From a virus, in the IMG/VR virus record IMGVR_UViG_3300017960_000001, positions 30,120-94,119 of that record: DNA of 64,000 nucleotides; one strand, 5' to 3'. A model generated the notes under the pieces. The model was not told the origin of the DNA. It did no database searches and saw nothing but the letters and a program-made list of their open reading frames with translations. Each line of letters opens with the position of its first letter. The stretch's first letter is position 1. The position numbers and the translations under genes were made by a program. Shown piece after piece: positions 30,118 to 58,454 of the stretch.

Positions 30118-30190
30118 AAAAACGACAGGCACCTGCTTATTTTTGTTGACACGGCCGGCGGACCGCGTTACATTCCTACACATGATGACG
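30118..30190 (+). promoter_or_regulatory. Early promoter P1 (family member)
   Basis: TTGACA 30146-51, 17 bp, TACATT 30169-74, ATGATGACG at 30182. Confidence 0.85.
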
Positions 30191-30415
30191 CACACACAAA
30201 CCCCGGAGGATGCCATGGCCGACGACATCAATCACGTTGAGCTGGAAATGAAAGCCCGCAACTGCACCGACGCCGAACTGATATTCATGCGGGACGACGC
30301 CGGCGCCGCGTGGCGCGCGATGCCGGACAATCCCAAGGCCAAATTCTACCGGTGGGAAATGTGCTACGCCTGCAACGAAATCGCCCGCCGCGGGTTGTCC
30401 GCGGACGGTTGCTAG
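30182..30415 (+). CDS. Small hypothetical protein (starts at 30182 and/or 30215)
   Basis: Leaderless ATG 30182 in frame with GGAGG-led ATG 30215. Confidence 0.7.
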   Translation: MMTHTQTPEDAMADDINHVELEMKARNCTDAELIFMRDDAGAAWRAMPDNPKAKFYRWEMCYACNEIARRGLSADGC

Positions 30416-30427
30416 AAAGGGGGCGCC

Positions 30428-30733
30428 ATGCGCGCACCGATCGATTCCGTCGCCCGTTTCTGTAACGCCCTGCTGGACCGCGTCGTTTCCGCGGTCCTAA
30501 TCGCCGGGCCCGACACCCGGATCGGCCGGGCGCGCGTCGCGCTCGGCAACGACCAGCTGGCAGCGATCACGTCGGACGTGATGCGCCCGCTGCTCAAGGA
30601 CGCGCTCCACGGCGACCGCTACGCCGAGGACCGGGCCGCCGTGGTCGACGGGATCTACGGGGCCGAGGCTGCGTTCGCCGCGGCGATCATCGCCGACGCG
30701 GTCAAGGGGATCGGCGACCGCTGCCCCGCGTAG
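30428..30733 (+). CDS. Hypothetical protein
   Basis: AAGGGGG SD. Confidence 0.65.
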   Translation: MRAPIDSVARFCNALLDRVVSAVLIAGPDTRIGRARVALGNDQLAAITSDVMRPLLKDALHGDRYAEDRAAVVDGIYGAEAAFAAAIIADAVKGIGDRCPA

Positions 30734-30747
30734 AGCCTACCCTTCAG

Positions 30748-30820
30748 AAAAAACGACAGGCACCGTATTCTTTTTGTTGACACGGCGGGCGGGGCGTGCA
30801 ATGATGTTCTCATGATGACG
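30748..30820 (+). promoter_or_regulatory. Early promoter P2
   Basis: TTGACA 30777-82, 17 bp, TGc-AATGAT 30800-05, ATGATGACG at 30812. Confidence 0.85.
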
Positions 30821-31369
30821 GACACACAAACCAACGCAACGGAGGAAAAAATGCCGACCCTGACCAACGACGAAGCCGCCCTGGCAATCACCGCGATCGA
30901 GCACTACATCAACACGCTTCACCACATGGCGGGGGACACCAACCCCGACCACGCCAAGGCGTTGCACGCCCGCGCCGACGAGTTGCGGGGGGTCCACCGC
31001 TCGCTGCTGAAGTCCGACGAGCCGGGGACCGACGCGGACACCGACGCCGACACGAACACCGCCCCCGACGAGGACGCGATGAAGGACGCCGCCGCGGCCG
31101 AGTTCGGGATCACCCGGACCAGCCTCGATGTGCTGCTCGACTACGCCGGCGACGCCGGAAATTGGAGCGGGTCGCCGTTGGTCGGTGGCAACGTCGGCGG
31201 GACGAAAGAAGAACGGGGCAACCTGACCCAACTGAAAAAGGCCGGGCTGATTTCGACGTGGGTGGAGGAGGGGAATTCGTGGGTGGACTTCACCCCGAAG
31301 GCCGCCGACGCGATCCGCGCCGCCGGCGACACCAAGCTGGCCGACTACATCGCCACCGTTGCCCGCTAG
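30812..31369 (+). CDS. Hypothetical protein with C-terminal winged-helix-like region (starts 30812/30851)
   Basis: RGNLTQLKKAGLI...WVDFTPKA; dual in-frame starts. Confidence 0.7.
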   Translation: MMTDTQTNATEEKMPTLTNDEAALAITAIEHYINTLHHMAGDTNPDHAKALHARADELRGVHRSLLKSDEPGTDADTDADTNTAPDEDAMKDAAAAEFGITRTSLDVLLDYAGDAGNWSGSPLVGGNVGGTKEERGNLTQLKKAGLISTWVEEGNSWVDFTPKAADAIRAAGDTKLADYIATVAR

Positions 31370-31378
31370 GAGGACACG

Positions 31379-32032
31379 ATGCGAAACGCAATAGGGAACA
31401 AGTACGAAGCGACCAAGGACGAACCCGCCACGGCGATCGCCAAGCGGATCCGCACGGACATCCGAGCCGCGGTCCGCGCCGGCGATCTCCCGGCCGAGCT
31501 TCGCGTGTCGGTCCGCACCGACCGGAGCACCTACCACGAATCGATCAGGATGGAGGTCACCGCCTACGACGGGCCGATCTGCAACCGGGTGTGGTTCGCC
31601 CGCAAGATGACCGGCGAGCACTTGCTGCTCAACGATTGCAACCGGCACGGGGTCGAGGCCGACGCGCTCCTCGCCAAGCTCACCGCGATCGGCGACGCCT
31701 ACAACTACGACAAGTCCGAGCCGGAAACGGACTACTGGAACACGCGCTTTTTCCAGACGGTGGATTACGCCCTCGCGCTCACCGAGGACGACTACATCGC
31801 CGCCGCTCACGACGTCGCCGGGTGGACGTTGGGGGTGGAGAAAACGGCGCCCCGTTACGACGACGACGACCTGCTCTGGACGGTGTTCGCCGAGCTACCC
31901 GGGGAGGTGATCCCGGGCAAGCCGGCGCCGGTCAAGCTGGCACTGGCGACGACCCCCGAGGCGGCCGACGAAACCGCCGACTCGCTGGCCCGTCTGCCCC
32001 AGCTTGCGCTCGAGGGGGACCTGCCATGGTAA
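31379..32032 (+). CDS. LPD29-like (polyvalent-protein-associated) domain protein
   Basis: IAKRIR..I...VSVRT...AYNYDKSEPETDYW.TRF. Confidence 0.6.
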   Translation: MRNAIGNKYEATKDEPATAIAKRIRTDIRAAVRAGDLPAELRVSVRTDRSTYHESIRMEVTAYDGPICNRVWFARKMTGEHLLLNDCNRHGVEADALLAKLTAIGDAYNYDKSEPETDYWNTRFFQTVDYALALTEDDYIAAAHDVAGWTLGVEKTAPRYDDDDLLWTVFAELPGEVIPGKPAPVKLALATTPEAADETADSLARLPQLALEGDLPW

Positions 32033-32244
32033 CCGGTGATTGGATCGTCGAACGGGTCGATCGGACGGACGACATTCGCTACCCGTTCAGGGTGATCGGC
32101 AGGTTGCGCGAAACCGGCGAGCTGTTCCGGTGGTGCGTCCCGTCGGTCGCCTCGAAACGCTACGACCTAAGGCTCGCTGAGATGGACCAGAAAACGAGGG
32201 CGGCGGTGGACGTCGCCCGCTATCAACCGGAGGCTCAACAATGA
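32026..32244 (+). CDS. Hypothetical protein
   Basis: GAGGGGG SD; overlaps both neighbours. Confidence 0.6.
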   Translation: MVTGDWIVERVDRTDDIRYPFRVIGRLRETGELFRWCVPSVASKRYDLRLAEMDQKTRAAVDVARYQPEAQQ

Positions 32245-32612
32245 AGCGGATTCTCTTGGTGGACGACAACGACCTCGTCCGGCGGTCCCTAGCCCGGGTG
32301 CTGTCCAGCACCGGCGTCGAGGTCGACACGGCGGACGACCTCACGAAAGCGGTGCTGCTCATGTGCGTCGCCGCCGACCTCTCTCCCTACGACGCAGTGA
32401 TCTCCGACATGGACCTCGGCAACGGCCACGACGCCGGCGGGCTCGCCGTGCTCGAGGTGGCGCGTCGGATCCTGCCCGGCGCCCGCCGGGTGCTGGTTTC
32501 CGGGTCGACCTTCGAGGAGGGGCCGGTGCGGGAGGCGATCGACACCGGCGCCTGTGATCGGTTCCTCCCCAAACCATGCCGGGCGGACGACTTGCTGAAG
32601 GCCCTACTCTAA
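32241..32612 (+). CDS. Single-domain response regulator receiver (CheY-like)
   Basis: ILLVDD, VISDMDL (phospho-Asp), LVSG and FLPKP all intact. Confidence 0.9.
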   Translation: MKRILLVDDNDLVRRSLARVLSSTGVEVDTADDLTKAVLLMCVAADLSPYDAVISDMDLGNGHDAGGLAVLEVARRILPGARRVLVSGSTFEEGPVREAIDTGACDRFLPKPCRADDLLKALL

Positions 32613-32630
32613 GCGGCCCACCGACCTCGC

Positions 32631-32695
32631 AAAATTTATTGCTTATTTTTGTTGACACGGCCGGTGCTGCGTGCCAAGATTTACTCATGATGACG
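32631..32695 (+). promoter_or_regulatory. Early promoter P3
   Basis: TTGACA 32652-57, 17 bp, TGc-CAAGAT 32675-80, ATGATGACG at 32687. Confidence 0.85.
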
Positions 32696-32724
32696 GACAC
32701 ACACACAACGGAGGGCAACTAACC

Positions 32725-32823
32725 ATGGCGCTGAAAAAGAACGACCGCTCCCGCAAGACCCGCAAGTCTCACCACAAGAAGCTGCGCCGCCGCGCCGACC
32801 GCGCCGCGTGCGCCGGCCGCTAG
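32725..32823 (+). CDS. 32-aa highly basic peptide
   Basis: GGAGGG SD; MALKKNDRSRKTRKSHHKKLRRRADRAACAGR*; too short for the ORF track. Confidence 0.55.
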   Translation: MALKKNDRSRKTRKSHHKKLRRRADRAACAGR

Positions 32824-32833
32824 GGAGGGCACC

Positions 32834-34144
32834 ATGTACGCCGACACCAACGACACCAACACCGACCCCGCCGCCGACGCCGCGGCGGTGGTCGCCACCC
32901 CGGAAGCTCCCCCGACGTTTTGGTTCACCGCGGGCGAGCTAGATCACATCGACGACCTGCTGAAGCTGACCACGACGGGCACCCCGTTCGCCGGGGCCAG
33001 CTGGCGCCGCACCGGGGAAAAGACCCACGTCGACCGGTACGGATACGAGGTCACGGTGTACGCGGTCGAGCTAATCGCCGACGTGACCAGCTACCTTGAG
33101 ATTCCAGACCACACGTTGATCGCCACCGCCAAGGCCGCGGCCGAGGGGGAATGGTTTGTGAACCTGCTCGGCGAGACGACCTACGCCGACATCGCCGAGG
33201 ATTTGGACCCGCGGCGGTGCGATGTGTGCGGCATCCGGCACAACCGGACCAAGCTCTACATCATGGTCGAGGACGCCACCGGGGATCACGTTGTCACCGG
33301 CGGAACGTGCGCGCGGAAGTTCCGCAACGTCGACCTGCTCTCCGCGGTCGATGCGTGGTTCCGGCTCCGGTCCGAGGTCGCCGGCGACATCGACGAGAAA
33401 ATGGACAAGCTCCGCGGGGCCCGCGACTTCTGGATCGAGCTTGCTGCGGCGGAACACATCGTCACCGAGCGCGGCTACGTTTCGGCCGCCGACGCCGAGG
33501 AAAAACGGACCACGTCGACCACCTCTGAATTGGTCTACTGGTGTGACCGCGGGTGGAAAGAAATGGACGCGAAAACCGCCCGCGGGATCTACACCCGGGC
33601 GACCGAGCTTATGGACGGCGGCGCCGCTGAACTGCTCGCTTGGATCGACGCCCGGAACGCCGATCGCCCGTCGTCGTTCTGGCACAATTGCGGGGTGGCA
33701 CTCCGCACCGGCGACCCCGGCCGCGGCCGCGGGTTGGTAGCGTTCCTCGGTAGCGTCAAAATGAGGATCGCCGAGGACGCGATCCGGGCCGCCCGCCCGC
33801 CGGCGAAAAACTACGCCGACGCCCCGCTCAAAAAGATGATCGACCTCGACGGGTGGTGGACGGTGCTCCGCTCCAAATGGTTCGACGGCTACGGGTACAC
33901 CGATTCGATCGGGTACACCATGACGAACGAGGACGGGGTCAAAATCTGGTGGAAAAGCTCGGTCGAGGGGAACGCCGCCAACGCGATCTTCTCTGCCGAA
34001 AACGACGCGAACCTCAACGGCGTCGACCACGACCGGATCCAATACCGGCTCCGGGGGAAGGCCAAAGAACACAAGGACGGGATTTCGTTTTTCACTCACA
34101 TCAAGGTACTGGACACTCGCGTCGTCGACGGCGCGGACAACTAG
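32834..34144 (+). CDS. Phage protein with Zn-binding motif and possible C-terminal OB fold
   Basis: CDVCGIRHNR...GGTCARKF; GGGAGG SD. Confidence 0.7.
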   Translation: MYADTNDTNTDPAADAAAVVATPEAPPTFWFTAGELDHIDDLLKLTTTGTPFAGASWRRTGEKTHVDRYGYEVTVYAVELIADVTSYLEIPDHTLIATAKAAAEGEWFVNLLGETTYADIAEDLDPRRCDVCGIRHNRTKLYIMVEDATGDHVVTGGTCARKFRNVDLLSAVDAWFRLRSEVAGDIDEKMDKLRGARDFWIELAAAEHIVTERGYVSAADAEEKRTTSTTSELVYWCDRGWKEMDAKTARGIYTRATELMDGGAAELLAWIDARNADRPSSFWHNCGVALRTGDPGRGRGLVAFLGSVKMRIAEDAIRAARPPAKNYADAPLKKMIDLDGWWTVLRSKWFDGYGYTDSIGYTMTNEDGVKIWWKSSVEGNAANAIFSAENDANLNGVDHDRIQYRLRGKAKEHKDGISFFTHIKVLDTRVVDGADN

Positions 34145-34195
34145 ACGAACCGGACGGGGTCCTCTGGCTCCGTCCACTAACCGAAGGGGGTTAGG

Positions 34196-34423
34196 ATGCC
34201 GATAACCTGCGACGACGGAAGGACGACCCTCCACGCGCCCGACAAGCTGGCTGCGAGGACGGCCGCGATCCCGGGGTGGGTCTACGACTACGAGGACCAG
34301 CTGGCCGCCGAGGTCGGCGACGTGACCTGCCCGGAGTGCGGCGAGCTTGTCCCCGAGGAGGACGCCGGCGAGCGGTGCCCCGGCTGCGGCTGCGATGTCG
34401 ACGCGGCGGGGGGGGGGGCGTAG
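34196..34423 (+). CDS. Small Zn-ribbon protein
   Basis: CPECG...CPGCG. Confidence 0.6.
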   Translation: MPITCDDGRTTLHAPDKLAARTAAIPGWVYDYEDQLAAEVGDVTCPECGELVPEEDAGERCPGCGCDVDAAGGGA

Positions 34424-34425
34424 AC

Positions 34426-35175
34426 ATGGCAACGATCAGAACAAGCTACGAGGCGGCCCGCGGCTGCGGCTTTCGGAAGGCCGGCGGGCTCTACTTGGTC
34501 GCCGGTTCGGAGGGCGAGCCGTGCGGCCGATTGCCGATCGACCTGCGGGTGTGCCCGTGCTGCGGCCAGGGGATCAAGCCCGCCCGATCGTGGACGTGGA
34601 TCGAACCCCGGCAGCTGATCACCGGGACCCTGTGCCGGACGATGCAAGCCGACCCGCAGTCCTGCGCCGGGCGGTGCATCCTCTCTGATCTGAGGTGCCC
34701 GGAACGCGCCGGGCTCTTGTGGATCGGCGGCAAGTTCTACCCGACCCCGGCGGCCTTCTCTGGCGAGGCGGCGAGGATGGGAGTGTCCCGCCGGATCACC
34801 GCGGTTCCGCGAGGGTTCGTCGTCGGCGAGACGTGGGTTCTGCTCGCTCACCGCGAGGTGCTGAACCGGAACGGCGACCGCGTCCCGGCGATCTTCTCCG
34901 CGTTCCTACCGACGGCGATCGAGTACATCGTCAAAGGCACTGAGACGGACGAGGAACTCGACAAGCTCGAAGCGCGGGGGCTGACATTGGTCGACGTCAA
35001 ACCGTTGCAGGCTCCCCTCGAGGCGGTCCCTGACGAACCCGACGACGGCGACCCGTGGACGTGTCCGCGGTGCGGCGCCGAGGTCGAGCCCGGCGCGCCC
35101 CGGTGCGGCGACTGCGGATCCGATCCCGACGGCGCGCCGCCGGACCAGCTGGACCGGGATCCGCTGCCCAACTAG
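34426..35175 (+). CDS. Cys-rich phage protein with C-terminal Zn ribbon
   Basis: RGCGFRKAGGLYLV, CPCC, CPRCG..CGDCG; start reassigned to ATG 34426. Confidence 0.7.
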   Translation: MATIRTSYEAARGCGFRKAGGLYLVAGSEGEPCGRLPIDLRVCPCCGQGIKPARSWTWIEPRQLITGTLCRTMQADPQSCAGRCILSDLRCPERAGLLWIGGKFYPTPAAFSGEAARMGVSRRITAVPRGFVVGETWVLLAHREVLNRNGDRVPAIFSAFLPTAIEYIVKGTETDEELDKLEARGLTLVDVKPLQAPLEAVPDEPDDGDPWTCPRCGAEVEPGAPRCGDCGSDPDGAPPDQLDRDPLPN

Positions 35176-35207
35176 CCGGCCGCCCGCCCGCTCTCCAAGC
35201 GGCCCCC

Positions 35208-35282
35208 AGAAAAATCAGCACCGCCATGCTTATTTTTGTTGACACGGCCGAGCCTGCGTGTAACGATAGCTTCATGATGACG
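35208..35282 (+). promoter_or_regulatory. Early promoter P4
   Basis: TTGACA 35239-44, 17 bp, TGt-AACGAT 35262-67, ATGATGACG at 35274. Confidence 0.85.
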
Positions 35283-35498
35283 GGGCAACACAACGGACCG
35301 GAGGGCAAAATGAATAGGCTCGGAATCGTAGAATATACCCATTACCACCACGCGATCTACGTCGACGGCTACCGCCTCGGCGACCTCCACAAAGACCACG
35401 ACGGAACGTGGTCGGTCCACCACCGCGAGGCTGTCGTTGGCTCCTCGCTCGGCTACGTCCGGGCGATCGCCGCACTGCGCCGCGCGGCGGGGATCTAG
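35274..35498 (+). CDS. Small hypothetical protein (starts 35274/35310)
   Basis: Dual in-frame starts; GGAGGG before ATG 35310. Confidence 0.65.
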   Translation: MMTGQHNGPEGKMNRLGIVEYTHYHHAIYVDGYRLGDLHKDHDGTWSVHHREAVVGSSLGYVRAIAALRRAAGI

Positions 35499-35511
35499 GG
35501 GGGGGGGCGGC

Positions 35512-35697
35512 ATGGGACGCCGGATCAAACCGAAACCGACCTGCGCCGGCTGCGGCAAGCCGCTGGTGAAGTTCCACGACTACCCGGTCGAGGGTATCAA
35601 GTACAAACGCCGCCGCAAGGGCAAGGACGTGTGGGTCACGCCCCGGGTGTGCGAAACCTGCAACGAGATGGACAACAGAATGGAGGGCACCGAATGA
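35512..35697 (+). CDS. Small basic Zn-finger protein
   Basis: CAGC...CETC. Confidence 0.6.
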   Translation: MGRRIKPKPTCAGCGKPLVKFHDYPVEGIKYKRRRKGKDVWVTPRVCETCNEMDNRMEGTE

Positions 35698-37118
35698 AAA
35701 AACAAGGATGGTTCGACGTGGATCGCGGTGGTCTACGTCAGCTGGTCGCCGACCGCAACCCCGGCTTCATCCTCGCCGAGCTGATTCAGAATGCGTGGGA
35801 TGAGCCGGGGGTGACCCGGGTCGACGTCAAGCTTGAGCCGGTGGCCGGAGCCCGGTCCGCGCTGCTCGTCGTGAAGGACGACGCGCCGGAGGGGTTCTAC
35901 GAACTGGCCCACGCTTGGACGTTGTTCTCGGACACGCGGAAGCGAACCGACCCCTACGCCCGGGGCCGGTTCTGCCTCGGTGACAAGCTGGTCCTCGCGC
36001 TCTGTCGCTGGGCTGAGATCACCACCACCACCGGGGCGGTCCGGTTCGAGTCCGACGGCACCCGCAAGCGGCGCCGGCGCAAGACCGAATCCGGCTCCGT
36101 GTTCGAGGCCGAGGTCCCGATCACCCGCCAGCAAATCGACGACGCTCTGAGCCTGGCTCGGACGTTCATTCCGCCGGACCTGATCGACACCACGATCAAC
36201 GGCGACAAGCTCCCGAGCCGGGAACCGCGGGCGAGCTTCACGTGCACGCTCCCGGTGCCGCTCGCCGACGCCGACGGGGTGATGAGGGAATCCCGGCGCA
36301 AGGTTGCGGTGCGGGTGTTCGACACGCTCCGCGGCGAGTCCCCGACGCTCTACGAGATGGGGCTGCCGGTTGTCGAAACCGGCGACCGCTGGCACGTGGA
36401 CATCGGCCAGAAAGTCCCGCTCAACGCCGACCGCGACAACGTCCGGCCGAGCTACTTGCGCCGGGTGCGTGCGTTCGTGGCTAACGAGTTGGTCGACGAC
36501 CTGAGCCCGGACGATGTGTCGGAGGCTTGGGTCCGCGACGCGACGACCTCTCCCGACATCGACGGCGACACCGTGCGCCGGGTCGCCGACCTGCGATGGG
36601 GCGAGAATCGGGTGGTGGTTTCGCCCGGTGATCGATGGGGCAAGGAACGGGCGATCGCCAACGGCTTCACGATCGTCGGATCGCGGGAGCTTTCCGCGGC
36701 CGAATGGGAGCAATTCCGATCGGCCGACGCGGTCCCGGCGACCACCGACAAATTCAAGCGGGGCACCGCCAACGCGAAGATCCTGAACCGCAACCAGCTG
36801 ACCCCGGGAATGCTCCGGGTCGAGCGCATGACCAAGGCCGTGGCCCGGATCGGGCTGAACATGGACGTCCGGGTCACGTTCCTGCACTCGCCGGAGGCCA
36901 CGGTGTCCGCCGACTACACACCCGGTCACGTCCGGTTCAACGTCGCGCTCCTCGGCAAGTCGTGGTTCGCCGGACCGGCCGTCCCGATCCTGCGATTGGT
37001 GATCCATGAGTTGGGACACGAAGGCGGGGGCCACCTCGAGGCTGGCTACTACGACACCCTGGCCCGGATCGGTGCACGGTTGGCCGTCGCATCCGACCGG
37101 CTGAACACGGAGGTCTGA
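35694..37118 (+). CDS. GHKL ATPase fused to a C-terminal HEXXH zincin-like domain
   Basis: ELIQNAWD (N box), KDDAPEGF (G1), GRFCLGDK (G2), IHELGHEGGGH. Confidence 0.8.
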   Translation: MKKQGWFDVDRGGLRQLVADRNPGFILAELIQNAWDEPGVTRVDVKLEPVAGARSALLVVKDDAPEGFYELAHAWTLFSDTRKRTDPYARGRFCLGDKLVLALCRWAEITTTTGAVRFESDGTRKRRRRKTESGSVFEAEVPITRQQIDDALSLARTFIPPDLIDTTINGDKLPSREPRASFTCTLPVPLADADGVMRESRRKVAVRVFDTLRGESPTLYEMGLPVVETGDRWHVDIGQKVPLNADRDNVRPSYLRRVRAFVANELVDDLSPDDVSEAWVRDATTSPDIDGDTVRRVADLRWGENRVVVSPGDRWGKERAIANGFTIVGSRELSAAEWEQFRSADAVPATTDKFKRGTANAKILNRNQLTPGMLRVERMTKAVARIGLNMDVRVTFLHSPEATVSADYTPGHVRFNVALLGKSWFAGPAVPILRLVIHELGHEGGGHLEAGYYDTLARIGARLAVASDRLNTEV

Positions 37119-37120
37119 AC

Positions 37121-37492
37121 ATGGGTCACGACAACGACAACGACATCACCGCGCGGATCGCCAAGCTCCCGCGGTGGGCCCGGCAACACATCGACAAGCT
37201 CACCGCCGATCTCGAATCCGCCAACCGCAAGCTGCGCGCCTCCACCGACCCGGGGTCCCGGGTCCGGTGGGGGCACCTCGGCATCGACAACGACCGCGGG
37301 ACCCCGATTCCCGAGGGCGAGCCGATCATCTTTTCCATGGTGCCGTTCTCCGAATGCAAGCACCGCGTTCGGATCAAGGCCGCCTACGACCCGGACACCG
37401 GGACGCTCGAAATCAGCGGTGGCGATGCGGTCGACGTGGAGCCGGTGGCGCGCAACGTGATCCGCGTCCGGTGCGGCAAGCTTTTCGACTAG
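37121..37492 (+). CDS. Hypothetical protein
   Basis: GGAGG SD; KLPRWARQHI N-terminus. Confidence 0.7.
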   Translation: MGHDNDNDITARIAKLPRWARQHIDKLTADLESANRKLRASTDPGSRVRWGHLGIDNDRGTPIPEGEPIIFSMVPFSECKHRVRIKAAYDPDTGTLEISGGDAVDVEPVARNVIRVRCGKLFD

Positions 37493-37498
37493 CAACGC

Positions 37499-37528
37499 TT
37501 GACGCGAACGGGCCCGCGGTGTATGCCT
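37499..37528 (+). promoter_or_regulatory. Possible promoter of the repressor gene
   Basis: TTGACG-17 bp-TATGCC. Confidence 0.35.
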
Positions 37529-46272: not shown

Positions 46273-46275
46273 ACC

Positions 46276-46611: not shown

Positions 46612-46662
46612 AAACAGCTTGACACGCTCGCGGGGCGGTGTTACGATTCCCCCATGATGACG
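46612..46662 (+). promoter_or_regulatory. Promoter P7 (family member lacking the T tract)
   Basis: TTGACA 46619-24, 17 bp, TGt-TACGAT 46642-47, ATGATGACG at 46654. Confidence 0.8.
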
Positions 46663-46741
46663 GGAACAACCCAACCCACGAACGCAACGCCGCGCCTTCG
46701 CGGGATCGTCTGAGCAACCCTACCCGGTGCCCTCCGTGTAG

Positions 46742-47422
46742 GTGTCCGTCATCATACCCGCTCGGACGATCCCTCGAGGGCACGGCCCCCGGGGCACGAT
46801 GAACCAACGCCGACCGACACCCCGCGACAAAGCCTTTCTGAAATTCGTACACAGGTTCACGGCGGTCTGTTGTCAGTGCCGGGTGTCGCCGTTCGAGGAG
46901 GCTCACCATTTCGGCACCGGCGGGATCGGGTTGAAGGGGTCCGACTACCTGCAAGCTCGGTTGTGCCGGCGGTGCCACCGGATAGCGTTCAAACAGCACG
47001 CGCTCCAACGCAACGGCGATTACGAGACTCTCGTTATGTACTACGCCGACGCGGTCGACCTCATGGAGCGATACATCATTGAGCTACTCGAAACCCGACG
47101 CGGCCGGATGAAGATCCCGCGGTGCGTCGGGTGCGAGTTCTGCGACGGCGACGGGTGCCGGGCGCAGCTGCCGCACATCGAACCGCCGACCGAATGCGCC
47201 ACCGACGAGCTAGTCAACTGGCTCGCGGAGTCTTTCGAGGGGGACGACCCCGGCACCGCGGCCGCGTGGCTTTTGGATTGGGCGAACCGGCGCGCATCCG
47301 AGCAGAACGAGGTCCTCGTTGAGGCTCTCGAAACGATCGCCGACAACCCCGACGACGCGAACGGGGACAACGGACGGACAGCGATCGGCGCCCTGCGCCG
47401 GATCGGGAAGGTAGGTGATTGA
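46742..47422 (+). CDS. DUF968/Ref-like HNH-type Zn protein (alternative start 46799)
   Basis: FLKFV...CCQC...EAHH...GLKGSD...LCRRCH. Confidence 0.7.
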   Translation: MSVIIPARTIPRGHGPRGTMNQRRPTPRDKAFLKFVHRFTAVCCQCRVSPFEEAHHFGTGGIGLKGSDYLQARLCRRCHRIAFKQHALQRNGDYETLVMYYADAVDLMERYIIELLETRRGRMKIPRCVGCEFCDGDGCRAQLPHIEPPTECATDELVNWLAESFEGDDPGTAAAWLLDWANRRASEQNEVLVEALETIADNPDDANGDNGRTAIGALRRIGKVGD

Positions 47423-51035: not shown

Positions 51036-51502
51036 GCTACCCGATCGACGCCGACGGAACCGAGGCGATCCTGCTCGCGGTGGTCACCAAGGATCCGGTC
51101 GTCCTCCCGGGCGTGCCGGATGAACACCTCGAGGTGGCCGTCGAGGGGCGCACAGTCGCCCGCCTCGCCTGGGAGGGCACCGCACACCGGGTCGTAGCTC
51201 TCCGCTGTCACAGGGCGGCTCACGGCGTCCTGCCCGCATTCAAACGGCTAGCCGACAAGCTCGAAGAACTGTCCGGGCAGCGCATCGATCCCGAGGACTG
51301 TGAAACGTGCGGCGGTACCGGGTGGGTCCCGGTCGACAAGCCGGAGGCTCGGACGGTCGCCACCGCGGCTCTGTTCTTGCGAATGTTCCGGGGGATCGTT
51401 CTCTCGAAGGACACCGACGCCCTCGAAAAGTTGAAGGACCACGTCGACGCGGGGACCATGTTCGGCAGCCTCCTCGGCGGATTCAACAACGACGCCCGAT
51501 AG
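51032..51502 (+). CDS. Hypothetical protein with CxxCxGxG motif
   Basis: CETCGGTG; ATGA overlap. Confidence 0.6.
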   Translation: MSYPIDADGTEAILLAVVTKDPVVLPGVPDEHLEVAVEGRTVARLAWEGTAHRVVALRCHRAAHGVLPAFKRLADKLEELSGQRIDPEDCETCGGTGWVPVDKPEARTVATAALFLRMFRGIVLSKDTDALEKLKDHVDAGTMFGSLLGGFNNDAR

Positions 51503-51554
51503 GACTCTCACTCACAACCTTTGACACGGATCGCCGCGGGTATTACAAAGGGGA

Positions 51555-52046
51555 ATGGCGAACCGTCGCCGGGGCTGCACTGAGCGGATTTTTCGAGCGG
51601 TAATTGAAACCGTGAAGGGGAACCGTCGCCCGGCGACCCGCCGCGAGGTTCAGGAGTTCTGCGCGGTGTCGTCCGCCACCGCCCGCCGCGAGCTTGAGAG
51701 GTTGAGGGGCGCCGGCCGATTGTGGCGGGTGCCGATCATCGACCCCGATCAGGAGGGGGGCAAGTCCCGCCGCGGATACCTGCCCACCGACGACCGGCTC
51801 GTCGGCAACATTGCGATCGGCGAGTGCGACGTCGACGGGTGCATCGCGGTACCGGTGATCATGCTGACCCGGGGCGGCCGGAGGTGGAAACTTTGCCGGC
51901 GGTGCATGCGGGGATTCGACGAGGCCACCGGGCGCGGGTTCGGCGGGCCCACCGACGAACGAGCTTACAGCCTGTCGTTGTCCGCGGGACGCACGTCCTC
52001 GGCGTTGTTTTGCGGGGGGTGGGAACCGCCGACCGGGGACGACTAG
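51555..52046 (+). CDS. Winged-HTH (LexA-N-like) plus Zn-finger protein
   Basis: PATRREVQEFCAVSSATARRELERL; CDVDGC..CRRC; TTGACA at 51521. Confidence 0.6.
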   Translation: MANRRRGCTERIFRAVIETVKGNRRPATRREVQEFCAVSSATARRELERLRGAGRLWRVPIIDPDQEGGKSRRGYLPTDDRLVGNIAIGECDVDGCIAVPVIMLTRGGRRWKLCRRCMRGFDEATGRGFGGPTDERAYSLSLSAGRTSSALFCGGWEPPTGDD

Positions 52047-52235
52047 CTCAGACATGCCAGCCAGGGGCCAGTGAGTCTCGCAGCAAGCCCGACCAGGGAA
52101 GGAATTTAGAGGGCCAATGATTACGGGGGTTTGCGCCGAAGCCAAAGGGACTGGTCAGCCAGTCGCAGCCAGGTAAGGGGCAGCGAAGGGGCAGGGAAGG
52201 TCGCAGCTGGACCAGTGGCAAGCCGGGCGCAAGGG

Positions 52236-52265
52236 TTGACAACGGGACACAAACGGACATAGAAT
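52236..52265 (+). promoter_or_regulatory. Sigma70 promoter with AACGG(G)ACA direct repeats in the spacer
   Basis: TTGACA-18 bp-TAGAAT. Confidence 0.7.
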
Positions 52266-52275
52266 GCTAATCAGG

Positions 52276-52692
52276 ATGGCAATGGACCACGACAGGGCGC
52301 TGAAGGTCGCCGCGGTTGCGAAACGACTCAGCGTCACAGAGAAGATGGTCCGCGAGCTATTGAGGCGCGGCACGTTGCCCGGGTTCAAGATTGGTCGGGC
52401 GTGGCGTGTCGCAGAGTCAACCGTCGACGACGTGATCGCAGGTCGGTTGTCGTTGGAGGTTGGAGGGCAAGATGCGACCCCAGGATCTTTACATCGAGGC
52501 GACGCACACCCGGACGGAAACGGAGGAGGAAAAGTTGCAGCGCCAGCTGGAACTGCTCACCACCGAACGGCAACGGGACAAGCGGACGATTCGCCGGTTG
52601 GAGGATCTCGCCGACCGCCAAGCGCAGGAGTTGCTGCGATTGCGGCGTCGGCCGATCCCTGCCGCGGAGGTGCCGGCGCCCTGAAGGTGTGA
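52276..52692 (+). CDS. Excisionase-like HTH_17 DNA-binding protein
   Basis: LKVAAVAKRLSVTEKMVRELLRRGTLPGFKIGRAWRV. Confidence 0.8.
   Translation: MAMDHDRALKVAAVAKRLSVTEKMVRELLRRGTLPGFKIGRAWRVAESTVDDVIAGRLSLEVGGQDATPGSLHRGDAHPDGNGGGKVAAPAGTAHHRTATGQADDSPVGGSRRPPSAGVAAIAASADPCRGGAGALKV
52472..52684 (+). CDS. Small coiled-coil protein nested in the HTH ORF tail
   Basis: GGAGGG SD; heptad pattern. Confidence 0.55.
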   Translation: MRPQDLYIEATHTRTETEEEKLQRQLELLTTERQRDKRTIRRLEDLADRQAQELLRLRRRPIPAAEVPAP

Positions 52693-52767
52693 CGCGACCT
52701 CACGGAAGGGGGTTCGACCGCGCGACGGACACCGCGCGACTAGATAGCTTTTCCGGTTCGGGGAACG

Positions 52768-52992
52768 GTGCCGCGGGTGGCGGCCGGCAAAGGGGCGCCG
52801 CCGTGGCCCGCGGGACCTGACCCCGTCCGACACAGGAGGGCACCGTTGGATCCGTTCGAGTTGTTCTGGGCGATCGTGTGTTGGATCGTGATCGTGTTCG
52901 CGGTGGTGCTCATCATTGTGTCGTTGGTCGACATCTGGCTCCGATCGTATCGTGGCCGAGGAATGGACCTGCCCCGCCGCAAGGAAAAGTGA
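52768..52992 (+). CDS. Small membrane protein (start uncertain)
   Basis: One strong TM segment; AGGAGG upstream of TTG ~52846. Confidence 0.5.
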   Translation: MPRVAAGKGAPPWPAGPDPVRHRRAPLDPFELFWAIVCWIVIVFAVVLIIVSLVDIWLRSYRGRGMDLPRRKEK

Positions 52993-53663
52993 TGTTCGAG
53001 CTAACGCACCCCGGATCAGAGGCCGGGGGCCGGGCCGAATCGGATCACTATCCCACCCCGCCGCTACTGGCGAAGCGAGGCGTTCAGCTGGCGCTCGAGC
53101 TACACGGTCTGCGGGCGATCCCTCTGTTCCTCGTCGAGCCCGGTTGTGGTGACCGGGCACCGTTCTGCCGGTGGGCCCTCGACGCGGGGATGGTAGCCCG
53201 CGGGATCGAGGCCCGCGACATCGACCCGCCGACGTTCCCTGACATCGCCGAGGAGCAGGTCTGGGAAGGGTTCCGGTTCAGCGGTGGGGCGGACTACCTG
53301 ACCATGGAGAAACCCGACGAGCGCGCCGACCTAATCGTCACCAACCCCCCCTTCTCTCTCGCCGAGGAGTTCGTGCGGCGCGCGATCGAGAAGTGGGTCA
53401 CGCCGACCGGGCTTGTGGTGATGCTACTCAAAACCAGTTTCGAGGCGTCGAACGACCGGCGGGAGTTCTGGCGCAAGCACCCGGCGATCTTCCGGTACGT
53501 GATCCGACCGCGTCCGGGGTTCACCGGTTCCGGCAACGACTCCGGCGAGTATGCTTTCTTCGTTTGGCCGGGGCCCGCCCTCGGCCGCAAGCTGAGCCGG
53601 ATCGGCAGGGCGTGGTGCGAGACTCGCTACATCGACAACGACGGACCTTGGAGGAAGGCATGA
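52992..53663 (+). CDS. DNA amino-methyltransferase (N6-A/N4-C)
   Basis: DHYPTPP, VEPGCG (motif I), IVTNPPF (motif IV), RPGF, EYAFFVW. Confidence 0.85.
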   Translation: MFELTHPGSEAGGRAESDHYPTPPLLAKRGVQLALELHGLRAIPLFLVEPGCGDRAPFCRWALDAGMVARGIEARDIDPPTFPDIAEEQVWEGFRFSGGADYLTMEKPDERADLIVTNPPFSLAEEFVRRAIEKWVTPTGLVVMLLKTSFEASNDRREFWRKHPAIFRYVIRPRPGFTGSGNDSGEYAFFVWPGPALGRKLSRIGRAWCETRYIDNDGPWRKA

Positions 53664-54220
53664 CCTCAGACCAGCTGCCGGCCGCCGTGCTGGCGATCGA
53701 CCCGGGGACGGAACGTAGCGCGGTGGTGATGTACCGCCCTGCCGAGCAACGCTTCCAGTGGGCTGAGTGGATGCTGAACCCCGACGTCCTAACCATGATG
53801 CGAAGGTACGGGCGGGAGGCCGGCGGGCTACACGTGGCGATCGAGGACATCCAGAGCTTCGGGCTCGAGGTGGGCCGGTCGACGTTCGAAACCTGCGTCT
53901 GGATCGGACGGTTCGCCGAGGCGTTCGAGGGCGCCGCGCCGGGTCGGAACCAACCCGCGACGATGGTGAGCCGGCGGGACGTGAAGATCGTCCTGTGTGG
54001 GCGCATGACCTACAAGGATCCGCGGACCGGCAACCAGAAAAAGGTCGGCGATTCAGAGGTGCGGCGGGCGGTGCTCGGGAGGTTCCCGGCGACGGGGGGC
54101 GGGTCGACACCGCAGGTCGGCACCAAGAAGCAGCCCGGTCCGTGCTACTGTCTACGTGGAGATCAGGGGCACAAGTATCAGGCCGCGGCGATCGCGGTGA
54201 CCTACATCGAGACGAGGTGA
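53660..54220 (+). CDS. RuvC-like Holliday junction resolvase
   Basis: LAIDPG, VAIED, WIGRF.E. Confidence 0.8.
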   Translation: MTSDQLPAAVLAIDPGTERSAVVMYRPAEQRFQWAEWMLNPDVLTMMRRYGREAGGLHVAIEDIQSFGLEVGRSTFETCVWIGRFAEAFEGAAPGRNQPATMVSRRDVKIVLCGRMTYKDPRTGNQKKVGDSEVRRAVLGRFPATGGGSTPQVGTKKQPGPCYCLRGDQGHKYQAAAIAVTYIETR

Positions 54221-54224
54221 GCAG

Positions 54225-54572
54225 ATGGCAGACGAGCGGGCGGTGATGTTCGGGCCGGTGTGCCCGGTGATCGAGCAAGGCGACGAGCTTTGGAACGTGG
54301 AGATCGGTGACGTCGCCGGCGAGCCTGCAATGGCCGGGATGTCAGCGGTCCGGGTGCAGCTGGTCGGCAAGCATGCTGAGTTCGTGATGGGGGTTCTGCC
54401 GTTGGCGGTGGTGATGGCACCGACACAGGACGACGCGATCAAGGCGTCGGTCGGCAGGTTGCACGCATACGCCCGGTACCTCGACAAGCTCGCCGGCGGT
54501 GCACGCGAGTTCGCCGGCGCGATCGAGAAGCTCGCCGAGGAGGGGGGCGTGGACAAGTGCATCGTGCAATAA
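54225..54572 (+). CDS. Hypothetical protein
   Basis: GAGGTG SD. Confidence 0.6.
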   Translation: MADERAVMFGPVCPVIEQGDELWNVEIGDVAGEPAMAGMSAVRVQLVGKHAEFVMGVLPLAVVMAPTQDDAIKASVGRLHAYARYLDKLAGGAREFAGAIEKLAEEGGVDKCIVQ

Positions 54573-55120
54573 CACTCTGGCCTGAGTGGGCGTGGGCCGT
54601 TTGCTACCTCGGCAAGAACGTCGAGAACCGACCATGGAAACCTCCGATCCCGGCGGGCTCTCACCTCGCAATCCACGCGGGCAAGAACCCCGGCGGGACC
54701 GGCCGGCTCGGCGAGGCGATGGGGTCGATCAAGCTGCTCGTCGAGGCGGCGATGCGAGCGGGGTGGACCGGCACCGCGAAGATGATCGCCGACAAGCCAG
54801 GGCACGCCGACATCGAGATCGATTTCCGGCGGTACGAGCCCGGCTCGCTGATCGAAACCGAGGCCACGTTGAAGCTCAGCGAGATCACCCGCGGGGCGGT
54901 GGTCGCCATGGCCGAGCTTGGACACTTCACCTCGCCGGCGGCGCTCAATTCACCATGGGCCGCGGGCGGTCCGATGTGGGCGTGGCCGTTGCAGGACGTG
55001 CTCGTTCTGAAGCAGCCGATCCCGTGTCGGGGTGCTCAACGGTTGTGGTTCCTGCCGCCGGCGGTAGAATCAGAGTTGCGAGTGCAGCTCGCAGACGACG
55101 AAGGAGGGATCGATGCCTGA
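54557..55120 (+). CDS. ASCH domain protein
   Basis: AITLWPEWAW....GKNVENRPW...LAIHAG...PIPCRGAQRLW. Confidence 0.85.
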   Translation: MHRAITLWPEWAWAVCYLGKNVENRPWKPPIPAGSHLAIHAGKNPGGTGRLGEAMGSIKLLVEAAMRAGWTGTAKMIADKPGHADIEIDFRRYEPGSLIETEATLKLSEITRGAVVAMAELGHFTSPAALNSPWAAGGPMWAWPLQDVLVLKQPIPCRGAQRLWFLPPAVESELRVQLADDEGGIDA

Positions 55121-55787
55121 CAGCGGCAAAGAGGGGCCGAGCAGGGGGCAGCTCTACAAGTGGGCGCGCGAGGCTGGCGCGGCGTTCGTCGCGGCGGTGA
55201 TCTATTGGTGGAAGCGGGCGCTGGTCGCCGAGCGCGATCGGGACGAGGCGATCGCCGAGCGGACAGAATGGTTCACTCGCGCAGGCGTCGCACGGACCCA
55301 GGTCCACCAGCTCGAGCGGGACGGCGTCGAGGTGCGCGGGAATCTCGCCGCAGCCCAAAGGAAGATCGCCGAGTTGGGGGCAGAGCTGGCCGACAAGACC
55401 GCCTACCTCGAGGGCCAGCTGGAACGCGAGTGCGAGCAACGTCGGCGGGCGGTCGAACGTGCGAAGGAGTACGAGGCGGCAGCGAAACGCACGATCAAAG
55501 CCGAACGGAAAAAGGCCAAGGACGACAGCCTTCGCCGGCAGTTGGAGGACGCACACGCGGACATCCGACGGCTGCGACGCGAGGCTGAGGGACACGTGCG
55601 GAGGTTCGACGTCGCCAAACGCGAGAACGACGAACGGGCCGACGGTCTGCGCGAGAGGATCAAGCGGCTCGAATCCGAGTTGAAACCGCACCGCATACGC
55701 GAGGCTGCTCAACGGGCGGCGGCGGCGAAACGTGCGGCCGCGGAGAAGTCAGCGGCGTCCGGTCCACCGACCGCCCGGGACCTGTGA
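55113..55787 (+). CDS. Coiled-coil protein with N-terminal hydrophobic patch
   Basis: Long heptad repeats. Confidence 0.65.
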   Translation: MPDSGKEGPSRGQLYKWAREAGAAFVAAVIYWWKRALVAERDRDEAIAERTEWFTRAGVARTQVHQLERDGVEVRGNLAAAQRKIAELGAELADKTAYLEGQLERECEQRRRAVERAKEYEAAAKRTIKAERKKAKDDSLRRQLEDAHADIRRLRREAEGHVRRFDVAKRENDERADGLRERIKRLESELKPHRIREAAQRAAAAKRAAAEKSAASGPPTARDL

Positions 55788-56077
55788 AAATGGACCAACG
55801 CCAACCCCGAAACAAACGCCTCATGATCCGGCTCACGCAGGACGAGAAAGTCCAGCTGGCCTCGATGGCGAAGGCCGCCGGCGCTCGCAACGTGTCCGAC
55901 TTCGTCCGCGGTCGGATGCTCGAACCCGAGGCGGCGGCCGACGAGCTTGCCCGATTGCGCGCCGACCTCGCGGTAGAGCGCGAGGCCCGGGCCGCGGCGG
56001 ACCGACGCGCAATGAAGGTCCTGACCCTAGAGAGAGAGGTTGAGCGGCTACGGAAGAAGCTCGCCGCCGATCGCTGA
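55784..56077 (+). CDS. Ribbon-helix-helix (MobC-like) DNA-binding protein
   Basis: RNKRLMIRLTQDEK...A..AG..NVSDFVR. Confidence 0.75.
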   Translation: MKMDQRQPRNKRLMIRLTQDEKVQLASMAKAAGARNVSDFVRGRMLEPEAAADELARLRADLAVEREARAAADRRAMKVLTLEREVERLRKKLAADR

Positions 56078-56100
56078 AGCCCCCGCCGAGTATAGCCAAG

Positions 56101-56175
56101 AAAAATTCAGCAGGACCCGTGTCTTTTTTTGTTGACGCGACCGGTGCAGCGTGCCATGATTTACTCATGATGACG
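56101..56175 (+). promoter_or_regulatory. Early promoter P5
   Basis: TTGACG 56132-37, 17 bp, TGc-CATGAT 56155-60, ATGATGACG at 56167. Confidence 0.85.
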
Positions 56176-56679
56176 CACACCAAACACACAAACCGCGGGG
56201 AGGCTGAAATGGCTCGCACTGTTATTTTCACGATGGGTCTGCCGGGCGCCGGCAAAAGCACCGTTGCTAACCGCATTCACCCCGACGCCGCTTGGATCGA
56301 CCCGGACGAGATTAAAAAGTCCCACCCCGATTACGACCCCAAGAACCCCGGCGCGATCCACGCCTGGTCCCAGGATGAGACCGAGCGGGTTTGGAATAAC
56401 CTCCTCGCCGGGAACACCGACGACGACGAGACTATCATGGACGGCACCGGCACCAACGCCGAGAAAATGATTCGCCGCATCCGGCAAGCACGGGCCGCCG
56501 GATTCCGCACCGCGCTGCTCTACGTGCGGGTCGGGTTGGACGTCGCAATCTACCGCAACGCCAACCGGTCGCGGGTCGTCCCCGAGCACATCATTCGCCG
56601 CAAGGCTCTGGACATCACCACCGCGTTCGACCTCTGCTCCGGCGAGGTCGACACGATTAACGTAGTCAACAACGACTAA
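56167..56679 (+). CDS. Zeta-toxin/AAA_33-like P-loop kinase (starts 56167/56209)
   Basis: GLPGAGKST, IDPDEIK, IMDGTG, R...R.R.VP lid. Confidence 0.8.
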   Translation: MMTHTKHTNRGEAEMARTVIFTMGLPGAGKSTVANRIHPDAAWIDPDEIKKSHPDYDPKNPGAIHAWSQDETERVWNNLLAGNTDDDETIMDGTGTNAEKMIRRIRQARAAGFRTALLYVRVGLDVAIYRNANRSRVVPEHIIRRKALDITTAFDLCSGEVDTINVVNND

Positions 56680-56693
56680 AAACGGAGGGCACA

Positions 56694-57206
56694 ATGACCG
56701 ACGGAACAAACACCAACAACACCCCGGGAATCGACGCCACGCTCCGCTCCGACGACTACGAGCGGGCGGTGGTCGCATTGATGACGGACCCCGCGATCCA
56801 AACCATGCTCGCCGAGGTTCCGCCCGGTGATGAGATCGACTTCGCCCGCGCCATGATGAGCACGTCAGCTGTCAAACGCTACCACGCGATCTGGGATGCG
56901 TGGGAGAAAGCCGGGCTCGCCGACACGTGGGCCGCCGCGGGCAAGGCCAGGGTGAACGGTCCGATCGGCGCACCGATCGAAGCGTTGCGCCGGCTGCTCG
57001 AAAATCGTTTGCCCGACGTCGTGGCGGTGTACCTGTACCACTGCAACGGCGAGGCGGTCTACGGATGGGGGCCGAACATCGAGACGGCAAGGGCGGCCGC
57101 CGACGCGAGCTGGCGCGCCCGATGGGGAACCGTGGTGAAGAACCCGGGCCGGGTCCAGATCACCCTGAACGGCAAGGTCGTGAGCGACACCCGCAACGAC
57201 AACTAG
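56694..57206 (+). CDS. Hypothetical protein
   Basis: GGAGGG SD. Confidence 0.7.
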   Translation: MTDGTNTNNTPGIDATLRSDDYERAVVALMTDPAIQTMLAEVPPGDEIDFARAMMSTSAVKRYHAIWDAWEKAGLADTWAAAGKARVNGPIGAPIEALRRLLENRLPDVVAVYLYHCNGEAVYGWGPNIETARAAADASWRARWGTVVKNPGRVQITLNGKVVSDTRNDN

Positions 57207-57215
57207 GAGGACACC

Positions 57216-57641
57216 GTGAAAGTCAACAACGCGATCAAGGAACTGGCGGATCGGGACGTGCTGGACATCCTCGGCGACGCTAGCGAGCTGCACCGCAAGC
57301 ACCTGCGACTCGCCCAGGAAAAGGGCAACCGGACCGTGGCCGAAATGTGGACCCGCCGGATCGAGAAAACCGATCGGCTCAAGGTGGCGGTGGTGACGCT
57401 GATGGACGCCGCCCGCGAGGTGGTCGCCGACGAGGTCCCGGCCGCCTACGTCGTGACGCTCTACGCGGAGGACGGGCTCGCGGTGGTCGGGCGTTCGAAC
57501 GAGGACGAGCACGACGCCGATTGCAGGGCCGAGCGGCTGTTCCTGTCCGCGTTCGGGATCGCGCCGGTGGTGCGACGGGTCGCCACCTACCGCGGCCGGC
57601 TGGTGTCCGACAAGAAGCTCTCAACGGGGACCGGGTCATGA
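57216..57641 (+). CDS. Hypothetical protein
   Basis: AGGAGG SD. Confidence 0.7.
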   Translation: MKVNNAIKELADRDVLDILGDASELHRKHLRLAQEKGNRTVAEMWTRRIEKTDRLKVAVVTLMDAAREVVADEVPAAYVVTLYAEDGLAVVGRSNEDEHDADCRAERLFLSAFGIAPVVRRVATYRGRLVSDKKLSTGTGS

Positions 57642-58024
57642 TGCCAACCGGCAACTGCTACGAGGCCGCGGGGAAGTTCCTGATGGACTACGACCTCGGC
57701 CGGGTGCAGCTGCCGATCCCGGCGAACGTGCGATCGCTATTCGGGGACGAGGTGCTATTGGTCCACGGTCGCCCGGTGCTCCAAGTTCCGCCGTTCATCC
57801 GGTACGGTCACGCCTGGATAGAGATCGGCGGGATGTTCTGCTACGACGCCGAGCGGCGGGAGGTTTTCCCCCGGGCGCTGTACTACGCCGCCGGCCAGAT
57901 CAAGCCCGACGTGGAGTGCTACCGGTACACGGCCGAGGACCTGCGCCGGTGGGTCACCCGCCGCGGACATTGGGGCCCGTGGGAAGGCATCGAGGCCGAG
58001 GGGCTCGACGACGATGCGAGCTGA
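57638..58024 (+). CDS. Small papain/transglutaminase-like fold protein
   Basis: GNCY...LVHG...GHAWIE...YD putative Cys-His-acid triad. Confidence 0.55.
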   Translation: MMPTGNCYEAAGKFLMDYDLGRVQLPIPANVRSLFGDEVLLVHGRPVLQVPPFIRYGHAWIEIGGMFCYDAERREVFPRALYYAAGQIKPDVECYRYTAEDLRRWVTRRGHWGPWEGIEAEGLDDDAS

Positions 58025-58046
58025 AGCCCGCGCCGAGAGCGGTCAG

Positions 58047-58121
58047 AATTTTTTTAAAAAAAAGTTGTGCGGCAGGGTTGACACGGCGGGCGAGACGTGC
58101 CAAGATTTACTCATGATGACG
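58047..58121 (+). promoter_or_regulatory. Early promoter P6
   Basis: T7A8 tract, TTGACA 58078-83, 17 bp, TGc-CAAGAT 58101-06, ATGATGACG at 58113. Confidence 0.85.
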
Positions 58122-58454
58122 GGCAACAACAACACGGGGAGCGCGACAATGACCAACGAAACCAGCACGGCGATGATCATCGCGGCACAGATGGGGGGGA
58201 TCGGGAGACTGCGGGCGATGGTGGCGGCGAGCCACATGGCCGACCACGACAACGGGTTGAGCTTCCGGTTCAAGGGTAGCCGGGCCGCCAACTACGTGAA
58301 GGTCACGCTGGACCCCGACGACACCTACACCGTGGAGTTTTGGAAAATCCGCGGCGTGTTCAGCATGGACAAGGTCGAGGAATTGGGCGGGGTCTACTGC
58401 GACCAGCTGATCCCGTTGTTCGAGTCGACCACCGGCCTTTACCTGACTCTGTAG
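58113..58454 (+). CDS. Small phage protein (starts 58113/58149)
   Basis: IAAQMGG..RLRAM...ANYVKVTLDPDDTYTVEF...FESTTGL. Confidence 0.75.
   Translation: MMTGNNNTGSATMTNETSTAMIIAAQMGGIGRLRAMVAASHMADHDNGLSFRFKGSRAANYVKVTLDPDDTYTVEFWKIRGVFSMDKVEELGGVYCDQLIPLFESTTGLYLTL

Follow-up and report, generated by a model that had tools for sequence, protein, structure and literature searches.

Messenger RNAs of Escherichia coli that combine a Shine-Dalgarno (SD)-led start with an AUG at the 5' terminus bind 70S ribosomes and act both as leaderless and as SD-led messages (Beck, Fleming and Janssen 2016, PMC4965119). In the E. coli mRNAs tested with such a 5'-terminal upstream AUG (5'-uAUG), the 5' open reading frame (ORF) was always out of frame or stopped upstream, and the ptrB case suggests pre-loading of ribosomes (PMC4965119). 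Here we describe a promoter-leader cassette of a phage in which a predicted 5'-terminal AUG is locked in frame to an SD-led gene start. The cassette recurs in a stretch of 64,000 nucleotides (the window), which comprises bases 30120-94119 of the 94,119-bp IMG/VR virus record IMGVR_UViG_3300017960_000001, classed as complete with terminal repeats. The phage is uncultured, and all evidence is drawn from its sequence. A 5' AUG on an SD-led mRNA belongs to a known kind; new here is the repeated cassette with a predicted 5' AUG that is frame-locked to the SD-led start.

Three further systems are related to this arrangement. In Mycobacterium tuberculosis, 338 AUG or GUG codons at the very start of transcripts mark what are called 'isoform' ORFs, and the authors explain many of these by pervasive translation or misannotation (Smith et al. 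2022, PMC9094748). For mycobacteria in general, translation has been reported from whichever AUG or GUG stands at the 5' end (Shell et al. 2015, PMC4633059; Smith et al. 2022, PMC9094748). The cI mRNA of phage lambda made from PRM is naturally leaderless, since the A of its start codon is also the first transcribed base (reference in PMC4965119). T4-type phages carry PeSL (promoter-early stem-loop) cassettes, whose defining feature is a stable G/C-rich stem-loop that serves as terminator (Arbiol et al. 2010, PMC2839356).

Like the E. coli 5'-uAUG mRNAs, the transcripts predicted here have an AUG at the 5' end followed by a conventional leader, an SD sequence and a downstream start. However, the E. 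coli cases are scattered single genes, whereas the phage carries a repeated cassette, predicted from sequence, whose 5' AUG shares the frame of the gene in 9 out of 10 copies, with a spacing that is apparently under selection. With the isoform ORFs of M. tuberculosis it shares a transcript-initial start in frame with an ordinary start, which leads to an N-terminal extension; those ORFs are host genes found by Ribo-seq and are without a conserved promoter-leader module, an invariant 5' box or a CA tract. Like lambda cI from PRM, the phage genes have a sigma-70 promoter, a predicted transcription start on the A of the start codon and a CA-rich downstream sequence, which is a known enhancer, but the cI transcript has one start and is without a downstream in-frame SD-led start. 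The likeness to PeSL lies in a repeated intergenic block of about 100 bp with an AT-rich, sigma-70-like promoter, SD and start in front of orphan genes in plastic regions; an inverted leader remnant in one copy (P5, see below), which hints at recombination between copies, adds to it. A stem-loop terminator of the PeSL type did not turn up in the scanned part of the window (29900-35600); the stems seen here are weak ones of 3-4 bp. Moreover, PeSL is not described as starting its RNA with AUG, and the present phage belongs to a different sheathed-tail lineage with 66% GC.

Each cassette consists of an A-run, a short variable segment, a T-run, TTGAC(A/G)CG, a 17-bp spacer, a -10 box and the nine-base box ATGATGACG, in this order. 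On the 3' side of the box follow an unstructured CA-rich tract, GGAG and the ATG of the gene. We refer to the ATG at the start of the box as ATG1 and to the SD-led ATG as ATG2. The copies in the window are as follows; positions refer to the window unless the genome is named.

P1, 30118..30217, + strand: -35 box 30146-30151; -10 box 30169-30174 without TGn; ATG1 30182; ATG2 30215; offset 33 nt, in frame
P1 first gene, 30215-30415, + strand: 66 aa, orphan, no Pfam or PHROG match
P2, 30740..30853, + strand: -35 box 30777; TGn-extended -10 box 30800-30805; ATG1 30812; ATG2 30851; offset 39 nt, in frame
P2 first gene, 30851-31369, + strand: 172 aa, orphan
P3, 32620..32727, + strand: -35 box 32652; -10 box 32675-32680; ATG1 32687, opening an 11-codon ORF; TAA 32720-32722; ATG2 32725
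P3 first gene, 32725-32823, + strand: 32 aa, very basic
P4, 35200..35312, + strand: -35 box 35239; -10 box 35262-35267; ATG1 35274; ATG2 35310; offset 36 nt, in frame
P4 first gene, 35310-35498, + strand: 62 aa, orphan
P5, atypical, 46619..46801, + strand: -35 box 46619; -10 box 46642-46647; ATG1 46654, opening a 19-codon ORF; TGA 46711-46713; gene ATG 46799
P5 gene, from 46799, + strand: 207 aa, weak DUF968 and phrog_1588 matches
Inverted, promoter-less module leader inside the P5 leader, 46725..46756, - strand: box, GACAC, then ACACGGAGGG
P6, 56095..56211, + strand: -35 box TTGACG 56132; -10 box 56155-56160; ATG1 56167; ATG2 56209; offset 42 nt, in frame
P6 first gene, 56209-56679, + strand: P-loop kinase-like, AAA_33 domain, phrog_2071 ATPase
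P7, 58040..58151, + strand: -35 box 58078; -10 box 58101-58106; ATG1 58113; ATG2 58149; offset 36 nt, in frame
P7 first gene, 58149-58454, + strand: matches phrog_9437

An initial annotation of the window had listed seven copies with -35 boxes at 30146, 30777, 32652, 35239, 46619, 56132 and 58078, each with a 17-bp spacer, and all of these coordinates are correct. It had also assigned a TGn-extended -10 box to six copies; indeed, TGn lies upstream of the -10 box in 6/7 window copies, and P1 is the one without it. The box, read as the 10-mer CATGATGACG, occurs exactly at 30181, 30811, 32686, 35273, 46653, 56166 and 58112, always on the + strand, where about 0.1 occurrences would be expected per 64 kb. 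Seven is the family size in the window, whereas the whole genome holds ten exact copies and two one-mismatch variants (genome positions 7490 and 9167), i.e. twelve modules, all of them on one strand. The promoter is close to the sigma-70 consensus, and 12/12 copies have TTGAC(A/G), the 17-bp spacer and a -10 hexamer that fits xAxxxT. ATG1 begins 5, 6 or 7 nt past the -10 box in 1, 10 and 1 copies, respectively, with C at -1 and A at +1. This agrees with the earlier placement of ATG1 at the expected +1, which is the canonical position (6 nt past the -10 box for five copies of the window, 7 nt for P1). The first A of the box sits at the textbook +1 position, and the transcription start is predicted from this promoter geometry. 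GGAG or GGGG is found 5-10 nt 5' of ATG2 in 10/12 copies. Apart from P5, which lies among replication genes, the cassettes occupy two small-gene regions on either side of the virion genes. The first genes are mostly orphans without a Pfam or PHROG match.

Two arrangements around the -35 box were observed in addition. An A-run, a segment of 13-17 nt (often with CGACAG or TCAGCA) and a T-run that abuts the -35 box are found at 30118-30145, 30745-30776, 35205-35238 and 56098-56131. They may be a UP-like element or a weak bidirectional terminator, and a distant relative of the phage (G001, see below) has the same arrangement. A terminator scan gave no terminator-like hairpin on the + strand in 29900-35600; by eye, just 3-4-bp stems are seen between A-run and T-run. 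Furthermore, a dyad (CACG-N10-CGTG) extends across the -35 box and the TG of the extended -10 box at 30781-30798, 32656-32673, 35243-35260 and 58082-58099, which may merely reflect TTGACACG plus cgTGc.

The spacing between the two starts is the central observation. The in-frame offsets of 33, 39, 36, 42 and 36 nt and the TAA-CC-ATG arrangement of P3, as initially described for the window, are correct, and so is the calculated chance of 13/729 for five of six copies in frame. It had further been proposed to follow the frame spacing in the rest of the genome and in relatives. Genome-wide, ATG1 is in frame with ATG2 and the frame is open in 9/10 copies that have a second start (offsets 36, 42, 39, 36, 33, 39, 36, 42 and 36 nt; binomial P = 3.6e-4), and P3 is the sole out-of-frame copy among these ten. 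When the single module of a metagenomic relative is added, 10/11 are in frame (P = 1.3e-4). The in-frame leaders thus come in five lengths (33, 36, 39, 42 and 60 nt), all of them divisible by 3. Between leaders of the same length, identity is only 44-76%, and the gaps in the alignment of the CA tracts are 3, 6 or 9 nt long despite dinucleotide CA runs that would slip by 2.

The copies that deviate from the common layout have their stop codons at a specific place. In P3, the 11-codon frame of ATG1 ends at a TAA 2 nt before the ATG of the gene. In the copy c4 (outside the window, at genome 7491-7735), which has no second start nearby, the frame of ATG1 runs for 79 codons and stops at a TAG 2 nt before the next SD-led ATG. 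Such a stop placement suits termination followed by a restart. Within the in-frame leaders, GC is distributed over the three codon positions as 0.53/0.48/0.75 (chi-square P = 1.7e-4; P = 6.5e-4 for the CA part alone). This pattern resembles the excess of GC at third codon positions (GC3) in the gene candidates of the genome, whose GC3 of about 0.75-0.96 is a range partly set by the GC3 filter that picked them.

Leaderless initiation is reported to be determined by the identity of the AUG, the lack of a leader and an accessible start (PMC8459731). CA repeats 3' of the start are reported to enhance translation of both leadered and leaderless mRNAs (PMC9031893); the statements of the initial annotation on 70S initiation at a 5'-terminal AUG and on enhancement by CA repeats are in agreement with this source. 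The first 45 nt of the twelve predicted transcripts are A/C-rich with 4-9% T, and their folding energies are -1.2 to -6.5 kcal/mol in 12/12 cases, compared to a genome mean of -12.9. The start is accessible in the sense required of leaderless mRNAs, as 11/12 of the predicted 5' ends fall within the least-structured 3.5% of genome windows. Hence, the predicted 5' ends of the cassettes match the known determinants of leaderless initiation.

Protein families point to ATG2 as the conventional start. In the P6 product, the AAA_33 domain begins at residue 5 counted from ATG2, and in the P7 product residues 8-101 from ATG2 align to the phrog_9437 profile of 98 positions. Since ATG2 provides the family-typical N-terminus of both proteins, initiation at ATG1 would add an extension. 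As predicted from the sequence, this extension, proposed as a tag in the initial annotation, would comprise 11-14 residues and begin with Met-Met-Thr.

We consider it probable that the cassettes provide two starts, i.e. that some ribosomes start at the 5'-terminal AUG and translate in frame into the gene, while others start at the SD-led AUG. In this mechanism, the host RNA polymerase would start on the A of the box ATGATGACG, so that the mRNA would begin with AUG-AUG. After a 70S-type leaderless initiation at AUG1, ribosomes would pass through the CA-rich stretch, which is short, poor in U and unstructured, and enter the gene in the same frame. Initiation of the normal kind would take place at GGAG and the AUG that lies 33-42 nt further on. 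Each cassette would consequently yield its first protein in two forms, a long one with 11-14 extra residues at its Met-Met-Thr start and a short one. The tandem AUG-AUG in one frame would presumably tolerate a transcription start that is a few bases off, and leaders of at least 33 nt would let ribosomes occupy both starts at once. The benefit may be a more robust or faster expression of the first gene, or a harmless absorption of 5'-AUG initiation that is unavoidable.

Relatives of the phage were sought at several levels. A loose pattern scan of IMG/VR gave single chance matches alone and a strict pattern gave one chance match; a third pattern scan recovered only the distant relative G001. In the records of 15 IMG/VR relatives found by their sheath protein (30-36% identity), the box is not enriched. 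A strict pattern scan of JGI metagenomes identified the contigs Ga0180433_10097091 and Ga0180434_10122326, which overlap by 616 bp at 100% identity and represent one phage with one usable module. This phage and the window phage have a response-regulator-type gene and one homologous small ORF in common, and the promoter is 75% identical over 64 bp. The leader of the metagenomic relative is 60 nt long and its ATG1 is in frame. Its cassette is followed by a small gene and then by a stand-alone response-regulator receiver; a similar receiver is located at 32241-32612 of the window, inside a cassette.

G001 is a 100-kb record with a sheath protein of 36% identity and a genome GC of 0.60. It uses the same promoter type with A-run, T-run and TTGAC, and an ATG lies 5-7 nt past the -10 box at 4/7 of its best promoter-like sites. 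Three of the ORFs at these +1 ATGs have 77, 59 and 242 codons with GC3 values of 0.83, 0.71 and 0.72, and no SD-led second start was seen near these three. One of the four sites reads ATG-ACG-CAC-ACA at +1, which is the box without its first ATG. As the +1 ATGs of G001 open real genes, this lineage, and presumably its hosts too, appears to use transcript-initial ATGs as starts. At another place in G001 (65086-65170), the same promoter type has an ATG at +1 of a 6-codon ORF, and an SD-led ATG follows about 20 nt after the stop of this ORF, a layout that resembles the 5'-uAUG cases of E. coli.

Several observations weigh against two starts in one frame. The copies are paralogues, so that the binomial P values overstate their independence, and a minimum of about four separate length changes is implied; the frame test in relatives rests on one module. 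Because the CA-rich tract has almost no T and cannot hold stop codons, the absence of stops adds little. The leaders contain many rare codons such as ACA, CAA and AAA, P5 and c4 depart from the layout, and the invariance of the nine-base box exceeds the needs of a start codon, which points to an additional role at the DNA or RNA level. The extreme version of the latter would be that the box is exclusively a signal in transcription or RNA (an initiating region, a regulator site or an antisense target) and is never translated, while the spacing is ancestral and kept by triplet-repeat slippage. Apart from the nine invariant bases that go beyond an ATG, the AAC triplet runs in the copies c3, c5 and P7 and a complementary 10-mer in the P5 leader are in line with this. 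However, the leaders contain dinucleotide CA runs and non-repeat indels and still have gaps that are all multiples of 3; the stops 2 nt before the next ATG in P3 and c4, the codon-phase GC and the 60-nt leader of the relative, which remains in frame, also argue against it. We therefore regard a purely non-translational box as improbable.

A 5' AUG which mainly docks or parks ribosomes or protects the 5' end, and thereby boosts the SD-led start, is less easily separated from two functional starts; the N-terminal extension would then be without function, and the frame lock and the stops would be damage control that makes occasional read-through harmless. There is a precedent in ptrB with its 26-nt leader, where the 5'-uAUG is needed for 30S binding and downstream expression independent of the peptide (PMC4965119). 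Leaders of at least 33 nt would likewise allow ribosomes to sit side by side at AUG1 and AUG2, and the extension peptides are dictated by the CA-rich RNA and contain many rare codons. Nevertheless, docking still needs ribosomes that start at AUG1 and overlaps with the use of both starts in this respect. It does not predict the GC enrichment at third positions, and the same kind of +1 ATG opens real genes in G001, so docking as the main function seems rather unlikely. Another view, ordinary leaderless genes that start at ATG1 with the downstream GGAG-ATG as an unused internal feature, could refer to the leaderless-only genes of G001 behind the same promoter type and to c4, which has ATG1 alone and a 79-codon ORF. 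It is highly improbable in light of the GGAG found 5-8 nt before ATG2 in nearly every copy, of the AAA_33 and phrog_9437 profiles, which begin at ATG2 and not at ATG1, and of the P3 gene, which can start only at ATG2. The use of both starts, as suggested by the initial annotation, is thus favored by the frame lock of 10/11 copies, the stop placement, the codon-phase GC, the unstructured 5' ends and the leaderless genes of G001, but it does not extend to P5 and c4.

In P5, the leader is 145 nt long and structured, without a nearby SD or ATG2. Positions 46701-46714 and 46760-46773 pair in a 14-bp stem, whose 5' arm contains the stop codon of the 5' ORF. Through the inverted leader copy, the P5 RNA displays a 10-nt complement of the shared 5' end that occurs nowhere else in the genome; in the minimum free energy (MFE) fold this complement is unpaired, and the energy of the duplex would be -17 kcal/mol. 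A stem that closes the 5' end onto the 3' part as the main fold of P5 was rejected, because forcing it costs 11.6 kcal/mol relative to the MFE. The complement may mask the out-of-frame 5' AUG of P5 itself, act in trans on other transcripts, or be a relic of cassette recombination. One could imagine that the nine-base box plus G is a shared address to which the complement in the internal loop of the strong P5 hairpin pairs in trans, masking the leaderless start or altering RNA stability, but we judge this to be quite improbable. If true, the phage could thereby switch from one route of initiation, leaderless or SD-led, to the other, and the same pairing within the P5 RNA would silence its out-of-frame 5' ORF in cis.

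The box variant of c4 ends in A and opens the 79-codon ORF, which contains a hydrophobic stretch and ends with TAG-CC-ATG at the next gene. Its GC at the three codon positions is about 0.55/0.58/0.78, as measured on an overlapping longer ORF from 7443. No family match was found for the 79-codon ORF, which could be a gene served by a leaderless start alone. Although c4 contains the T-arm-like GGTTCGACTCC, no tRNA was called, and a tRNA-like RNA after c4 is not supported: the 245-nt stretch folds no better than its shuffles (z = +1.19) and gave no match with ARAGORN or Rfam.

If both starts are used, the cassette would be a natural and repeated design, kept by selection, that lets leaderless and SD-led initiation operate on one mRNA in one frame. 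Frame-locked cassettes would be suitable for asking what the 5' AUG contributes to yield, to speed after injection, to resistance against changes in initiation caused by host or phage, and to ribosome loading. The action of CA-rich tracts and the importance of short N-terminal tags could be addressed with them as well. For annotation, the consequence would be that gene callers miss the long forms.

The phage genome has a GC content of about 66%, and a GC3-based ORF screen places nearly all likely genes on the + strand. Its genes include a sheath-like protein (phrog_15814), a tape measure protein and a DnaB-type helicase. The gene after P3 encodes a protein of 436 aa for which a search matches only itself, on 4 contigs. 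A megablast of 6 kb against GenBank phages gave no match, and a search of GenBank phages with the sheath protein found Bacillus phage BCD7 alone (27% identity). A host signal was absent from a protein atlas search, and a genome scan for prophage or host gave one chance match, in a Desulfuromonadales metagenome-assembled genome of 52% GC. ARAGORN and Rfam detected no tRNA and no Rfam family in the window and in genome bases 1-12000.

Other promoters of the phage lack the box. Two sigma-70-like promoters without the ATG box, at 60173-60230 of the window and 9971-10040 of the genome, are followed by CA-rich leaders and then by SD and ATG. A CA-rich leader is thus general to the promoter-proximal genes of this phage and not tied to a 5' ATG. 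A further promoter outside the family is located at 52236-52282 (TTGACA, 18 bp, TAGAAT); 10 nt on, ATG-GCA-ATG opens an ORF of 138 codons that extends to 52692. Its predicted leader is about 3 nt long without a usable SD, and the N-terminus of the ORF resembles, by eye, a DNA-binding helix-turn-helix.

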